32,580 bases of DNA, taken from positions 1-32,580 of the forward strand of contig JACQEQ010000285.1 of assembly GCA_016200445.1 (NCBI GenBank), in the 5' to 3' direction. Made by a program: the position numbers and the translations under genes. The DNA is from Gammaproteobacteria bacterium (GTDB lineage Bacteria; Pseudomonadota; Gammaproteobacteria; SG8-11). Positions 4,232-12,750 of the stretch are shown piece by piece. The first letter of the stretch is position 1, and every line of letters begins with the position of its first letter. The notes below the pieces were generated by a model. That model was not told where the DNA came from, made no database searches, and was given only the letters and a program-made list of their open reading frames with translations.

Positions 4232-4307
4232 TGGTGCCGGGTAGAGGAATCGAACCCCCGACCTGCCGCTTACAAGGCGGCTGCTCTACCGACTGAGCTA
4301 ACCCGGC
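4232..4307 (-). tRNA. tRNA-Thr (anticodon UGU)
   Basis: 76-nt cloverleaf read on the minus strand. Acceptor GCCGGGT/ACCCGGC; D arm GCTC-AGTCGGTA-GAGC; anticodon arm GCCGC-CTTGTAA-GCGGC (anticodon TGT); T arm GGGGG-TTCGATT-CCTCT; encoded CCA end. Confidence 0.93.
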
Positions 4308-4343: not shown

Positions 4344-5273
4344 TTATTTACACGCGCGCTGTTGCTTTTCGACCTTTTCGGTTCCGCTGACCACATCTTT
4401 GATCTGCGCCGCCGTGATACTGCGCCGCGCATTTTCGTCGACATCGACCCAATACTGCGTGGTGCTGTCGAAGTGTTTTTCAACCACCGGCCGAAAACCC
4501 AATTTAACCAGGGCGTTGACGCGTTTGTTGGCCTGCGCCTCCGAATCGTATTTACCCAGCGAGATCATGTTTTCGTATTCGCCGTTGCTGATGATGCTGG
4601 CGTCGGCGACTTTTTTCTTACGCAACTCTTCCAACCTTTTATTCGCAGCGCGTTCATCCTTGGTGGCTTCGATTACCCACCATTGCTGGGTACTGCGGAT
4701 TTCGTGTTCACGGACGGTGGTTCGCAACCCCAAACCCAGACCGACTAGCCTGGCCATGACGCTTTCGGCATTGCTCAATACGCTGAAGGGACCAAGCGCA
4801 AAACAGGCCGTGGCTGCGGGCTCGGCCGCCGGACGCGGGCGTTCGCGAGCGGCGCGTTCTTCGTTTTTACGTGCCGCCAGATTGGCCTCGATGCGTTCCG
4901 CCTGGCGTGCTTCAGCGGCCAAAACCTTTCTTTCGAGCTCGGTGAGCGGCGGCACCGTCTCGATTACGGGAGTTACCGGCGGCGGAGTACGAACGTTATC
5001 TGCATTGCGCGCCGCCCCCGGGCGCAACGCAGCATCGTCCGCTGACGCTCGCGCTGGATCGCGCGTCCGCTGGGCGCTCGTGTTAGCGGGCTCGGAAGTT
5101 TCGGCCGGACTCTTGGTACCGCTTTCGACTTCGTGCAACAGCCGTATCGACTTATTGCCGCCGGGCGATTTTGTCGCCGACACCGCCACCGGCTCGTTGG
5201 AAGGCTGGTGTAATTGATGCCAAATCAGAAACGCGGCATTGACGAACAACAACAGAAAAAATGCCCACCTCAT
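4344..5273 (-). CDS. SPOR domain-containing membrane-anchored protein
   Basis: N-terminal TM helix MRWAFFLLLFVNAAFLIW, then a low-complexity Ala/Pro/Arg linker, then a C-terminal SPOR-like repeat (FALGPFSVLSNAESVMARLVGLGL ... ISLGKYDSEAQANKRVNALVKLGF). It has a 4-nt ATGA overlap with coaX and sits in the usual position downstream of birA-coaX. Confidence 0.8.
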   Translation of the reverse strand: MRWAFFLLLFVNAAFLIWHQLHQPSNEPVAVSATKSPGGNKSIRLLHEVESGTKSPAETSEPANTSAQRTRDPARASADDAALRPGAARNADNVRTPPPVTPVIETVPPLTELERKVLAAEARQAERIEANLAARKNEERAARERPRPAAEPAATACFALGPFSVLSNAESVMARLVGLGLGLRTTVREHEIRSTQQWWVIEATKDERAANKRLEELRKKKVADASIISNGEYENMISLGKYDSEAQANKRVNALVKLGFRPVVEKHFDSTTQYWVDVDENARRSITAAQIKDVVSGTEKVEKQQRACK

Positions 5274-6022
5274 GAGGTACTCCCGAAGACCGCCAAACCA
5301 TCCAATACCAAATAAGGTTCGTGGCGCAGCGTGCCGCGCAGCAAGGGCAATAGCACCGGGGCATCGCCGCCGGTAATCACGCCGCTGACGGGGGCATTTA
5401 AATTACGCTGCGCATCTGTCAACACCCGATCAACAAAGGCGGCTGCGGTGAGGCGCGTGCCGGCCAGAACCCCGGCTTGGGTATCCGTCGCCAGCCAGAC
5501 TTCCGGCGCCGTTAGGTCTTGCTGCAGGCCACCGATCCCGGAGGTGTCGCGCGTCAGCGCACTGCACATCGTCACCAAGCCGGGAGTGATCAATCCGCCG
5601 CGATGCTGTCCACCGGCATCGAACACATCCGCCGTGATGGCTGTGCCGCAATCGATCACACACACCGCCGTATCGGGCAGAATGCGGCGCGCGGCGATCA
5701 TTCCCAGCCAGCGATCCACGCCCAGCCGGTCGGCGCGCACATAGGAATTTGTCACACCATGGCCCTGCTTCTGCGCATGCGCGAATTCGGTGTGCAGTTG
5801 CCAGCGTTTCTGTACCCAGTCGTAGAGCGCATCGGCGATTTTAGTGCCGACCACGTTCGACACCAACACGCGCTCGGGCGCCGCGATCCCGCGCCATTGC
5901 GCATCCAGATTACGCGCGAACAACGCGGGCTCGTGCGCCACCGCGCCCGTGCGGGTGTGCACGCCGCCTTCCCATAAGGACCACTTCATGCGCGTATTGC
6001 CGATATCTGCCAACAGCATCAT
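5270..6022 (-). CDS. coaX: type III pantothenate kinase
   Basis: MMLLADIGNTRMKW N-terminus typical of CoaX, and 250 aa from ATG 6022. The ORF-track start at 6244 is a read-through of the upstream repeat element. GAGG lies 8 nt upstream of ATG 6022. Confidence 0.9.
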   Translation of the reverse strand: MMLLADIGNTRMKWSLWEGGVHTRTGAVAHEPALFARNLDAQWRGIAAPERVLVSNVVGTKIADALYDWVQKRWQLHTEFAHAQKQGHGVTNSYVRADRLGVDRWLGMIAARRILPDTAVCVIDCGTAITADVFDAGGQHRGGLITPGLVTMCSALTRDTSGIGGLQQDLTAPEVWLATDTQAGVLAGTRLTAAAFVDRVLTDAQRNLNAPVSGVITGGDAPVLLPLLRGTLRHEPYLVLDGLAVFGSTS

Positions 6023-6295
6023 CCTAGTAACCTCAGTTGAACGGTCTGCGGAGTGCGACCCGTTGAGTGTAGGGCAAGGCGCAATGAGCGAGGAATAGCC
6101 AGCTATTCCGATGATTCCTATCGCGCTGGTATTTGCGCGAGGTAGGACGAGTTGCAACGCCGCCATGCGCGCAACGGGGCGTGCTCCACAGACCGTAGCG
6201 GGCCTCACGCCGAGGCTGAAGTCTGGAAAAACTAAAAATATCAATACCTGCGCACACTTGCTTATGCCTCGCAGCGGTCAACTGGGGTTTCTAGG
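6023..6295. mobile_element. MITE-like non-autonomous element, copy 1 (273 bp)
   Basis: Termini CCTAGTAACCTCAGTTGAAC (6023-6042) and GTCAACTGGGGTTTCTAGG (6277-6295) are inverted repeats (about 17/19). A perfect 5-bp direct repeat ATCAT flanks the element (6018-6022 and 6296-6300). It aligns along its whole length with 11736-11972 apart from a 36-bp indel. Central hairpin GGAATAGC-CA-GCTATTCC at 6092-6109. No transposase. Confidence 0.85.
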
Positions 6296-6296
6296 A

Positions 6297-7277
6297 TCAT
6301 GTGGGAATTCCTCGCAAGCTCAGTTCTCCGGAAGCATAAGCGCGGGTAGCGCCACCTTCTGCGAATAATAACGCACCCTGCGCGTCGATGCCGTCCACCG
6401 TGCCGCGCAACGTGTGCTGCGGCAAGTGTAGTTCCGCTGCCTTGCCCACGTAAGCATCGCGCGCGCGCCAGCGCGGCAGAAAATTTGCGAAGCCGTCGCG
6501 CTCGAACGTCTGCAACGCTAGTAGCACGTGTTGCAACAGCATCGCCGCCAGATGATTGCGCGCCGGCATCAGGCCGGTAATCGATACGATGTCGACCCAC
6601 GGTTGCTCGATGGCGGACGCCGCCTCGGCTGCCATCGCCACATTGATACCGATACCGGCGACGACATAACATGGCCCGGAAGACTCGCCGGCCATTTCTA
6701 CTAACACACCGGCCAGCTTCCGGTTCTGCCACACGACATCGTTGGGCCACTTCAAGCCAACACCTGGCACCGCAGCGGCGTGCAGGGCTTCGGCGACGGC
6801 AACTCCTAGCGCGAGACTCAAACCGCCCGCCACCGCAGCACCGGAATTAAAACGCCATAACACCGACAAATAAATGTTGCCGCCAAACGGCGATACCCAG
6901 GCGCGGCCGCGCCGTCCGCGGCCCGAGGTCTGCGTTTCGGCCAGACACGCCCAGCCGCCCGGCGCGCCGCGTTGCGCATGTTCCACCAGATAGGCATTGG
7001 TCGACGGCAATTCCAGATGTACGTCTAAACGTTTCAACGCTGTACGCGCCGGCGGCGACAGCGCGTCGAGAATCTCGTTCGCCGCCAGCAACTCTAACGG
7101 TTCCGGCAAGCGATAACCTTTGCCCGCAACTGCATAGGCGTCGATACCGAGGGCTTTAAGTTTCTGCAGATCGTTCCAAATCGTCGCACGCGTCACACCT
7201 AACTCTTCGCCCAGTGCGACCCCGGAATGAAAGCGGCCGTCGGCGAGCAGGCGCAACAACGCATGCGTATTGCTCAT
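6297..7277 (-). CDS. birA: bifunctional biotin--[acetyl-CoA-carboxylase] ligase / biotin operon repressor
   Basis: N-terminal HTH (LGEELGVTRATIWNDLQKLKALGI), the biotin-protein-ligase GRGRRGRAW motif, 326 aa, and synteny with coaX. Confidence 0.93.
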   Translation of the reverse strand: MSNTHALLRLLADGRFHSGVALGEELGVTRATIWNDLQKLKALGIDAYAVAGKGYRLPEPLELLAANEILDALSPPARTALKRLDVHLELPSTNAYLVEHAQRGAPGGWACLAETQTSGRGRRGRAWVSPFGGNIYLSVLWRFNSGAAVAGGLSLALGVAVAEALHAAAVPGVGLKWPNDVVWQNRKLAGVLVEMAGESSGPCYVVAGIGINVAMAAEAASAIEQPWVDIVSITGLMPARNHLAAMLLQHVLLALQTFERDGFANFLPRWRARDAYVGKAAELHLPQHTLRGTVDGIDAQGALLFAEGGATRAYASGELSLRGIPT

Positions 7278-11024: not shown

Positions 11025-11735
11025 TTATTCACCTAAATACGCATGCCGGACCTGCGCATTGGTCAGCAGTTTTTCAGCCGCATCTGTCAACGCAATGGTT
11101 CCGCTTTCCATCACGTAGCCGCGTTGGCTGATTTCCAAAGCGCGCTTGGCATTCTGTTCCACCAGCAGAATCGTTACACCCTCCTGCGCAATAGCGCGGA
11201 TGGTTGTGAAAATCTTTTCCACCATCAGCGGCGCCAGGCCCATGCTGGGCTCGTCCAACAGCAACAGCCGGGGCTGACTCATCAGCGCACGTCCCATGGC
11301 CAGCATTTGCTGCTCGCCACCAGACAAGGTGCCCGCTTGTTGCTTGCAGCGTTCCGCCAGGCGCGGGAATAACGCGAACACGCGTTCCAGATCGTTTTTT
11401 ATCCCGGCGCGGTCCGTACGCGAGTACCCGCCCATGTCGAGATTTTCACCAACACTCATACGCCCGAAGATGCCACGCCCCTCCGGCACCAAAGCCAAGC
11501 CGCAGCGCGCGATCAGGTGCGCAGGTTGATGTGTAATCGCTTTACCATCGTAAAGCACTGACCCGTGTGCGACCGGCAGCAATCCACACAGCGCTTTCAG
11601 CAGGGTGGATTTTCCCGCGCCGTTGGCGCCGATCAGACACACCAGCTCACCGCGTTCGATCTGCAGGTCGACGCCCTTCACCGCTTTGATGCCCCCGTAC
11701 GACACCGCAAATTGTTTGAGTTCGAGCAGGCTCAA
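11025..11735 (-). CDS. livF: branched-chain amino acid ABC transporter ATP-binding protein LivF
   Basis: Walker A GANGAGKST, signature LSGGEQQML, Walker B LLLLDEP. 236 aa if started at TTG 11735 (product SLLELKQFAVSYGG), with GAGG 8 nt upstream. The ORF-track start at 11885 is a read-through of the repeat element. Confidence 0.9.
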   Translation of the reverse strand: MSLLELKQFAVSYGGIKAVKGVDLQIERGELVCLIGANGAGKSTLLKALCGLLPVAHGSVLYDGKAITHQPAHLIARCGLALVPEGRGIFGRMSVGENLDMGGYSRTDRAGIKNDLERVFALFPRLAERCKQQAGTLSGGEQQMLAMGRALMSQPRLLLLDEPSMGLAPLMVEKIFTTIRAIAQEGVTILLVEQNAKRALEISQRGYVMESGTIALTDAAEKLLTNAQVRHAYLGE

Positions 11736-11972
11736 CCTAGAAACCTCAGTTGGACGATCTGCAGAGTGCGTCCCGTTGGACGCAGGGCAAGGCGCAACGA
11801 GCGAGGAATAGCGAGCTATTCCGACGAGTTGCAACGTAGCCATGTGCACAACGGGGCGTGCTCCGCAGGTCGTAGCGGGGCTCACCTTCAGGGTGAAGCG
11901 TCATTTGGCCATGATCCTTAATAACACCATGCACTTGCTTATGCCTTGTAGCGGTCAACTGAGGTTTCTAGG
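11736..11972. mobile_element. MITE-like non-autonomous element, copy 2 (237 bp)
   Basis: Termini CCTAGAAACCTCAGTTGGAC (11736-11755) and GTCAACTGAGGTTTCTAGG (11954-11972) share 17 nt of perfect inverted repeat. The flanks are CTCAA / TTCAG and share the central TCA. Same plus-strand orientation as copy 1. Central hairpin GGAATAGC-GA-GCTATTCC at 11805-11822. Confidence 0.85.
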
Positions 11973-11973
11973 T

Positions 11974-12750
11974 TCAGGCTACGGCTCCGCCCAGATAGGC
12001 TTCGATCACGCGCGGATCACAACGCACCTGCGCCGGAATGCCTTCGGCGATTTTTTTGCCGTAGTCAAGCACTGCTACCCGGTCGCACAAACCCATCACC
12101 AGTTTCACGTCGTGCTCGATCAGCAGCAAGGTCACTCCCAACTCGCTGCGCAGCCGTTGCAGCAACTGCGTCAACGCGGCACGCTCGCTGGGATTCATGC
12201 CGGCGGCGGGTTCGTCCAGGGCGAGCATTTTGGGGTCGGTCGCCAACGCGCGCGCGATTTCCAGGCGGCGTTGATCGCCGTATGACAAATGTTTGGCCAG
12301 CGCACGCGCGTGCGTGCCGATGCCGGCCACGTCGAGCAATTCGTGGGCACGCTTGCGCATCGCCGCTTCTTCGCCGCAGACGCGTGCCGGGCGTGTAATC
12401 GCGCCCCACACGCCGGTGCGGGTACGGCAATGCCGCCCGACCATGACATTTTCCAAGGCGCTCATGTTGGCGAACAGGCGAATGTTTTGAAAGGTGCGCG
12501 CCAAGCCTAAATGCACGATCGCGTGCGGCTTGTGTGCCAGCAACGCCTGCCCGTCAAAATGCACTTGTCCGCCGGTGGCGGTATACAGCCCGGTGAGCAC
12601 ATTAAACAAGGTTGTTTTGCCTGCGCCATTGGGTCCGATCAAACCAAAAATTTCACCGGCGTTGACCGTCAGCGATACATCGCACAACGCGGCCAGGCCG
12701 CCGAAAGATTTGTCGATATGGGCTGCCAGCAGCAGCGGCGGCGCGTTCAT
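11974..12750 (-). CDS. livG: branched-chain amino acid ABC transporter ATP-binding protein LivG
   Basis: Walker A GPNGAGKTT, signature LSYGDQRRLEIA, Walker B LALDEPAAG, and the LivG-type C-terminal extension. 258 aa. ATGA overlap with livM. Confidence 0.92.
   Translation of the reverse strand: MNAPPLLLAAHIDKSFGGLAALCDVSLTVNAGEIFGLIGPNGAGKTTLFNVLTGLYTATGGQVHFDGQALLAHKPHAIVHLGLARTFQNIRLFANMSALENVMVGRHCRTRTGVWGAITRPARVCGEEAAMRKRAHELLDVAGIGTHARALAKHLSYGDQRRLEIARALATDPKMLALDEPAAGMNPSERAALTQLLQRLRSELGVTLLLIEHDVKLVMGLCDRVAVLDYGKKIAEGIPAQVRCDPRVIEAYLGGAVA

Follow-up and report, generated by a model that had tools for sequence, protein, structure and literature searches.

An IS1380-like miniature inverted-repeat element inserted at stop/start overlaps of coupled genes, with a candidate Shine-Dalgarno sequence in its terminal repeat

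A transposon that inserts into an operon usually has polar, deleterious effects, and in a compact genome it finds little neutral space. The Chunjie MITE (miniature inverted-repeat transposable element) of Geobacter uraniireducens, which is about 235 bp long and has a very stable fold, lies inside an operon whose structure is reportedly undisturbed (PMC3184786, PMC10969869). The dispersed repeats REP2 of Neisseria and IR-A/IR-B of Borrelia are located directly upstream of genes and provide their ribosome-binding site (PMC3184786), and the Correia/NEMIS and ERIC/YPAL MITEs are co-transcribed with their neighbours, form hairpins from their terminal inverted repeats (TIRs) and alter the expression of adjacent genes (PMC2229807). 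A Shine-Dalgarno (SD) function in a TIR is not mentioned in the MITE reviews of 2008 and 2024 (PMC2229807, PMC10969869). Here, we describe two copies of a MITE-like element in a 32,580-nucleotide stretch of a Gammaproteobacteria bacterium genome (assembly GCA_016200445.1, contig JACQEQ010000285.1, positions 1 to 32,580, forward strand; hereafter, the window). Both copies have minus-strand sense and measure 273 bp (copy 1) and 237 bp (copy 2), and in each of them the 3' TIR places the tetrad GAGG 8 nt before the start codon of the downstream gene, coaX and livF, respectively. From comparison of these sequences with their relatives, it is probable, though well short of certain, that GAGG acts as the replacement SD of coaX and livF and thereby makes insertions at such gene junctions tolerable.

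Copy 1 (CCTAG...CTAGG, 6023..6295, minus strand) lies in the stop/start overlap between birA, encoding the biotin-protein ligase/repressor (6297..7277, minus), and coaX, encoding type III pantothenate kinase (5270..6022, minus). The 23 bases at 6023-6045 belong to one TIR of this non-autonomous element; the 3' TIR of copy 1, CAACTGAGGTTACTAGG (6023..6039, minus), carries the SD-like GAGG at 6031-6034 and is followed directly by ATGATGCTG of coaX, giving |ATGATG at the junction. Similarly, copy 2 (11736..11972, minus) lies in the overlap between livG (11974..12750, minus) and livF, which encodes a branched-chain amino acid ABC transporter ATPase (11025..11735, minus); its 3' TIR, CAACTGAGGTTTCTAGG (11736..11752, minus), carries GAGG at 11744-11747 and is followed by TTGAGCCTG of livF (|TTGAGC). 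The element proper runs from CCTAG to CTAGG and is flanked by a 5-bp target-site duplication (TSD), whose 3' copy contributes its first 3 nt as the start codon. At copy 1, the 3' copy of the duplication (ATGAT, 6018..6022, minus) provides the coaX ATG at 6020-6022, and the 5' copy (ATGAT, 6296..6300, minus) provides the birA stop TGA at 6297-6299; at copy 2, the 3' copy (TTGAG, 11731..11735, minus) provides the livF TTG at 11733-11735, and the 5' copy (now CTGAA, 11973..11977, minus) provides the livG stop TGA at 11974-11976. Both insertions are thus in an NTGA overlap, and because the duplicated pentamer holds both TGA and NTG, the upstream stop is kept by the 5' copy and the downstream start by the 3' copy.

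The initial annotation had read GAGG as lying exactly 8 nt before the coaX ATG and the livF TTG, and the coordinates bear this out in both copies. The fixed distance on which it laid weight is real, but it follows mechanically from the geometry of the TIR plus the 5-bp duplication, as does the position of the start immediately after the TIR. The junction codons are the true N-termini: residue 1 of CoaX aligns with profile position 1, residue 3 of LivF aligns with position 5, and the orthologues have equal lengths. The mechanically called coaX open reading frame (ORF; 5270-6244, minus) begins 74 codons inside the element, at a TTG (position 6244), and would encode 324 rather than 250 amino acids; the 250-residue form is backed by homologues and profiles. 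As the annotation had also held, the two genes have no other ribosome-binding site in reach: the 20 nt before both start codons consist wholly of element sequence and leave no alternative SD, and the native SDs are displaced approximately 240-280 nt upstream, within the 3' ends of birA (GCGAGGAA) and livG (GGCGGAG). The opposite end of each copy likewise faces outward with an SD-like sequence, as had been noted, namely CAACTGGGGTTTCTAGG on the plus strand at the 5' TIR of copy 1 (6279..6295; CCTAGAAACCCCAGTTG on the sense strand), where the tetrad is degraded to GGGG, and CAACTGAGGTTTCTAGG at the 5' TIR of copy 2 (11956..11972, plus; GAGG at 11961-11964). When up to one mismatch is allowed, the window contains four occurrences of the 17-base TIR sequence, compared with 0.03 expected by chance, and these are the two ends of the two copies, which can be aligned end to end except for a 36-bp block private to copy 1.

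On sequence features, the element is filed here as a MITE with IS1380-like ends. It has TIRs, a TSD that is copy-specific and matched within the copy, and empty counterpart sites, and it is small, multicopy and non-coding, as bacterial MITEs are; its ends (CCTAG) agree with the CC(T/C) of IS1380 elements, and its 5-bp duplication falls within their 4-5 bp. The ends of piggyBac transposons likewise start CCCTAGAAAG, and their target is TTAA. IS1380 is the prokaryotic sister group of piggyBac (PMC10813416), and one of its members, ISEcp1, has the left inverted repeat CCTAGATTCTACGT and 5-bp AT-rich direct repeats (PMC6061673). The present element, whose ends read CCTAGAAAC overall and which starts CCTAGAAACCTCAG, shares with ISEcp1 the terminal CCTAGA and the 5-bp A/T-rich duplication; on the other hand, it has no transposase gene, the T-N-A core of its target is more specific than the generic AT-richness seen with ISEcp1, and what ISEcp1 is noted for is an outward promoter rather than an SD set against the junction.

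Among the other systems, REP2, IR-A and IR-B resemble the element in bringing a ribosome-binding site to the adjoining gene. REP2, however, has no TIRs or TSD and contains promoter, ribosome-binding site and ATG inside the repeat, whereas the element has TIRs and a TSD, no predicted promoter and a start codon derived from the duplicated target, and it does not fall among expression repeats of the REP2 type. As the reviews describe it, Chunjie is a MITE of similar size with a stable fold that is likewise tolerated within an operon, but it has 21-bp TIRs, 9-bp duplications and an A+T-rich sequence, and these reviews report neither an SD in its TIR nor stop/start regeneration (PMC3184786, PMC10969869). 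Long TIR hairpins and membership of the MITE class are shared with Correia/NEMIS and ERIC/YPAL, which differ in their TA duplications and whose known effects involve promoters, IHF sites, RNase III processing and mRNA stability; the element is not one of the Correia/NEMIS, ERIC or RUP repeats, as its TSD is 5 bp (N-T-N-A-N) and its TIR sequence is unrelated (PMC2229807, Table 1). REP, BIME and REPIN sequences are short imperfect palindromes linked to RAYT and lack a TSD, so that the element, with TIRs and a 5-bp TSD, is distinct from them as well. No Rfam family matched the element at the gathering threshold or at E<=1, and blastn against plasmids matched no relatives of it. Co-transcribed hairpin MITEs, repeats that bring a ribosome-binding site and a MITE tolerated in an operon are each already known, and no new category is needed; what is new is that IS1380-like ends occur together with a TSD by which stop and start are both restored at NTGA overlaps and with an optimally spaced candidate SD in the TIR, which is enriched at these overlaps.

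The syntenic contigs of relatives, which were reached via CoaX homologues, show what the two junctions look like without the element. The birA|coaX site is empty and has a 4-nt overlap in L040, L045, L047, L049 and L051 (…GGGAGGTCGCGGC ATGAT CTTG…), and the livG|livF site is in the same state in L040, L041, L045, L047 and L049 (…GGAGGAGCGGTGGC GTGAG CTTG…), with GTGAG or GTGAA as the pentamer; each empty site in the related genomes holds a single copy of the TSD pentamer. This agrees with the initial proposal that an element with inverted ends had landed between translationally coupled genes. The coaX and livF orthologues at empty sites all possess strong native SDs, with predicted energies of -5.8 to -11 kcal/mol. 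In L051, whose CoaX is 97% identical and whose flanks are 92-94% identical to those of the window, birA|coaX is empty and livG|livF is occupied, which implies that copy 1 is young or was precisely excised in L051 and that copy 2 is older.

The birA|coaX pentamer is occupied three times, in the window (6018-6300; 273-bp copy), in the metagenome-assembled genome (MAG) VAR_43 (L008:1916-2152; 237 bp) and in a soil/sediment metagenome contig (L037:3208-3533; 325 bp). All three copies are of the GAGG type and have identical orientation. The site is empty in L051, the closest relative of the window, and in L047, that of L037. The junction is either an insertion hot spot with three gains or a site of repeated precise excision, and the latter may occur as is typical of piggyBac-type transposases. 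A single ancient insertion was considered and set aside; it is less parsimonious than three gains, as the occupied lineages are not each other's closest relatives. At the same locus, coaX on the minus strand downstream of the 325-bp copy of L037 has a frameshift near codon 170, which may be an assembly error or mark a pseudogene, and in a distant relative with a 69% identical CoaX (L042:4420-4525), birA and coaX do not overlap and are separated by 106 nt of unrelated A/T-rich spacer.

The family was collected by scanning one genome per species with a 20-base internal pattern, which left the TIRs unascertained and gave 22 loci, all of them in three MAGs named Gammaproteobacteria bacterium; the identical pattern gave 17 further loci in metagenome contigs, and BLAST with motif extraction finally yielded 33 full and approximately 10 partial copies. 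The source is a groundwater community, and the element is multicopy in a clade of uncultured groundwater Gammaproteobacteria; sequencing depth reaches 61 over the element compared with 3-5 on the flanks (approximately 12-fold). The DNA contigs of four groundwater runs held no empty allele of copy 1, only the raised repeat depth. Two main TIR alleles with covarying arms were found, CCTC…GAGG in about 55% of copies and CGGC…GCCG in about 45%. With a generic anti-SD, from which that of the host 16S rRNA may differ, the predicted duplex energy is -6.3 kcal/mol for UGAGG and -3.1 kcal/mol for the GCCG allele. The TIR GAGG thus has what is expected of an SD, namely predicted complementarity to the anti-SD and a spacing within 5-10 nt of a genuine start.

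The two alleles differ in where they sit. Genes were judged by ORF length and a codon-usage score trained on these contigs, with key cases settled by N-terminal alignment to NCBIfam/Pfam profiles (CoaX, LivF, RapZ, FixJ, RNase HI, Def, HisZ and DUF2201), and independent sites were counted; a gene that starts at the first base after the element is termed a +1 site. Of 17 GAGG-type sites, 7 had a +1 start, compared with none of 14 of the GCCG type (two-sided Fisher test, p=0.0087), the seven genes being coaX, livF, a BatB-like gene, rapZ, a fixJ-like gene, rnhA (with TTG) and a DUF2201 gene, and the SD spacing is 8 nt at both window copies and at all 7 independent +1 sites. The DUF2201 gene (L034) lies on the opposite strand, at +1 of the 5' end of the element, so that the outward SD of the other end, pointed out in the initial annotation, is used once. 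Within the single VAR_43 MAG, where the alleles coexist, +1 starts occur at 5/6 GAGG and 0/4 GCCG sites (p=0.048). Among TSDs that begin with NTG, seven of eight with GAGG and none of five with GCCG serve as a start (p=0.005); the TSD TTGAA is found with both alleles, and its TTG is used as a start with GAGG only. Further GAGG copies lie before starts at +4 (four) and +8 (one).

Based on these results, the tolerance of the insertions may be explained as follows. When the element enters a 4-nt NTGA overlap, its 5-bp duplication rebuilds the upstream stop and the downstream start; with the native SD pushed 240-280 nt upstream, the only SD-like sequence in range is the TIR GAGG, 8 nt off. Acting as an SD, GAGG would let the subfamily that carries it persist at stop/start junctions, and the GCCG allele, absent from the +1 sites, would offer only a terminal UAGG. 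The element folds far better than shuffled sequence (z = -5.5 and -7.2), and the two TIRs are predicted to pair in the transcript with -28 to -36 kcal/mol, which would hide the SD. In structure-mediated translational coupling, pairing with upstream sequence hides a downstream SD, and ribosomes translating the upstream cistron, or terminating on it, open the structure. In the present case, the pairing partner would instead be the opposite TIR of a mobile element, at a distance of 200-300 nt. Access to the SD would then probably depend on ribosomes terminating at the upstream stop codon, which abuts the 5' arm at almost every +1 site. Alternatively, ATGAT sites contain an ORF of 12 codons, which begins at the duplicated ATG downstream of the native SD, crosses the 5' TIR arm and stops at a conserved TAA, and ribosomes on this ORF may enter the 5' arm and melt the stem; in copy 1, the ATG retained in the 5' copy of the TSD (6298-6300) would start the predicted mini-ORF MILETPVDRCEA (6262..6300, minus), which ends at the TAA of GGCATAAGC. 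By either route the stem would be opened, and translation of the two genes would stay coupled in some form; such ribosome-driven melting is a plausible but conjectural mechanism.

Several observations weigh against a role of GAGG as the SD. The initial annotation had named a lack of conservation of GAGG across copies as refuting its view, and GAGG is indeed not conserved in the family, where about 45% of copies carry GCCG, and within the GAGG subfamily of this sample the tetrad is no more conserved than its neighbours (variants are GTGG in L008, AAGG in L002/L029, GAGA, and CCCC in the unused arm of copy 1), nor is the used arm better kept than the unused one. In L008, GTGG rather than GAGG stands at a +1 site. 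The TIR pairing described above would mask the motif; GCCG copies are located 4-8 nt before starts (+4, +5, +8 and +8), among them those of lpxA and a DAHP-synthase-like gene, where the terminal UAGG is the sole possible SD; and in the lineage (L040, L043, L045, L047 and L049), an SD-like motif precedes 32 of 66 genes, so that about half manage without a recognisable one. In the same contigs, an overlap of exactly 4 nt (NTGA) is found in 27 of the 49 neighbouring gene pairs that share a direction, and such overlaps are so common that many insertions will land in them, while copies wedged between coupled genes may be harder to lose. The two alleles may belong to different transposases with different target preferences, as ATNAT duplications are frequent with GAGG and TTNAA with GCCG; no transposase gene lies beside any copy in the loci examined, and no search was aimed at the cognate transposase. 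In addition, the samples are small, the copies come from fragmented MAGs and metagenomes, and no RNA sequencing runs with this sequence were found.

Many of these points are what would be expected if GAGG were merely part of a transposase-binding TIR and a passenger with respect to translation. The subfamily would then prefer ATNAT/NTGAN pentamers, which, in a compact GC-rich genome, cluster at stop/start overlaps; copies between coupled genes, not being removable by imprecise deletion, would accumulate; and the downstream genes would be initiated without SD help or via the terminal UAGG. The TIR arms do covary as whole alleles (CCTC/GAGG, CGGC/GCCG and, in one copy, TCTC/GAGA), as expected for transposase recognition, and the lack of extra conservation of GAGG, the different TSD types of the alleles, the abundance of target overlaps, the many genes without an SD and the GCCG copies directly before lpxA and other genes all fit this account. 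However, the strong SDs of every coaX and livF orthologue at an empty site suggest that these genes rely on an SD; the alleles split 5/6 versus 0/4 at +1 sites although they share the VAR_43 genome; and the same TTGAA duplication yields a TTG start only where GAGG precedes it. A passenger role is rated as doubtful.

A stronger version of the replacement-SD reading is that the GAGG subfamily evolved to colonise NTGA overlaps, as a specialised transposon in which rebuilt codons, a correctly spaced SD, three stops and a translation-gated TIR stem act together; the TSD would regenerate stop and start, the TIR would give the SD, all three frames would be closed within 34 nt, the heavy secondary structure would avoid Rho polarity, and the TIR stem would tie downstream initiation to upstream translation and so re-create coupling across the insert. 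The three entering frames are in fact closed within 34 nt by TAG, TGA and TAA, which every copy has at positions 3, 16 and 32 of the sense strand, and variant copies still hold a stop (CCTAA in L007, GCATAGGC in L003), but these stops could be chance in AT-rich ends. The TAG stop that the initial annotation saw in the terminal CTAG does end the upstream ORF in L002/L029. The stop codons abutting the 5' arm, the mini-ORF at ATGAT sites, the good folding and the recurrent occupation of birA|coaX are also in line with adaptation, as are the compensatory changes found in the internal stems and the optional hairpin; the changes in the internal stems show that the palindromic architecture is maintained. 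On the other hand, G-U and A-C departures from Watson-Crick pairing in the stems number 33 and 32, respectively, which gives no sign of selection on the sense RNA over the DNA palindrome. The rate of +1 starts among GAGG sites (7/17) exceeds a site availability of about 10% (binomial p=0.0008), a baseline that is a rough estimate, and gene starts within approximately 45 nt lie at the 3' end at 20 sites and at the 5' end at 5 (all loci; binomial p=0.004), though the motif is present at each end; in the Ga0137447 metagenome, however, many GAGG copies are away from start codons. With support that is wholly circumstantial, both the evolved colonisation of NTGA overlaps and the concerted action of these parts are considered unlikely. 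The initial annotation had described the element as built to be translationally neutral between coupled genes, a view that is partly supported: the placement of the SD and its +1 enrichment (7/17 versus 0/14) stand, while the variable tetrad and the predicted TIR pairing that would hide it do not fit. That insertions are tolerated because the SD is brought along is better supported by the sequences than that the element was built for neutrality.

Finally, it is very improbable that the downstream genes are read from a new transcript begun in the element, with the SD as part of a mobile expression cassette of the kind known from Neisseria REP2 or Correia, for although a directional promoter would agree with the 20:5 excess of genes at the 3' end, a sigma-70 consensus scan found no promoter-like site within either window copy (and no terminator was predicted there), no sigma-54-like spacing was seen by eye, and the insertions lie within conserved, already transcribed operons.

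The remaining features of the family concern its architecture and its target. All copies start CCTAGAAAC and finish GTTTCTAGG, TIRs of 17 bp (CCTAGAAACCTCAGTTG) are present in all 33 full copies, including both in the window, and element length ranges from 237 to 371 bp. The build is modular: a core of 237 bp may be supplemented by two optional parts, a 36-bp hairpin and a block of approximately 52 bp, and one form reaches 371 bp, as seen in the window (6112-6147, minus sense), L011, L027, L030, L037 and L009; the 52-bp length difference is not a multiple of 3, in keeping with a non-coding element. The 36-bp hairpin block (TCCTACCTCGCGC...GCGCGATAGGA) occurs in about one third of copies and with both TIR alleles, and shows compensatory substitutions between copies; in the window, it is present in copy 1 (6112..6147, minus) and not in copy 2. 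Copy 1 also contains the conserved internal hairpin GGAATAGCTGGCTATTCC (6092..6109, minus). The optional blocks suggest recombination between copies or selection on hairpin structure. A third TIR allele, TCTC…GAGA, is represented by a single copy (L028:1516-1843; CCTAGAAATCTC...GAGATTTCTAGG) in which both arms are changed together; this copy has the TSD TTAAA and lies 45 nt upstream of an era-like GTPase gene.

The TSD is 5 bp in all complete copies, with the consensus N-T-N-A-N, and is matched within a copy and variable among copies (for example, ATGAT, TTGAA, TTTAA, GTAAC, ATAAC and TTAAC); where mismatches occur, they mostly affect the outer positions in old copies and, in a few cases, the central base. 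A 3-bp TNA duplication with a variable terminal A/T was rejected, because agreement extends to the outer positions (16/21 and 19/21 copies) and the duplications GTAAC, ATAAC and TTAAC are non-palindromic. An IS630-like TA or IS5-like CTAG duplication was rejected as well, since CCTAG is invariant, and it is the flanking pentamer that is repeated and differs between copies. At one insertion site that is identical in the contigs of two metagenomes (L026 and L034:6569-6805), one contig holds a 147-bp internally deleted form of the 237-bp copy. The contig ends L015, L021 and L022 of the VAR_43 MAG share an identical 20-nt 5' flank and have differing 3' flanks, which reflects assembly collapse at the repeat, and the duplication of L015 is therefore untrustworthy. 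A PF01797 gene (Y1_Tnp; IS200/IS605 or RAYT type) was observed in L045 (19339-20061), amid the permease genes of a second liv-like ABC transporter cluster, and is not adjacent to any copy of the element. In the window, a tRNA-Thr (TGT) gene is located at 4232-4307 (minus), downstream of the SPOR-domain gene that follows coaX.

These findings add an IS1380-like MITE family from uncultured groundwater bacteria, and they carry a warning for annotation, as ORF callers can over-extend genes such as coaX into the element. The occupied junctions also offer a natural system in which the contributions of an SD and of long-range mRNA structure to translational coupling can be gauged. If the SD proved irrelevant, the element would be an ordinary MITE with a well-defined target preference. 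If it were the specialised transposon outlined above, coupling would have been transplanted across a 240-330-nt insert by a self-contained, operon-safe translation adaptor, which would account for the recurrent same-orientation occupation of one junction in separate lineages. If GAGG is the replacement SD, as we consider probable, stop, SD and start would be rebuilt in a single insertion, and the TIR-borne SD would open a large niche to the element, since about half of the junctions between co-directional genes in these genomes are stop/start overlaps.

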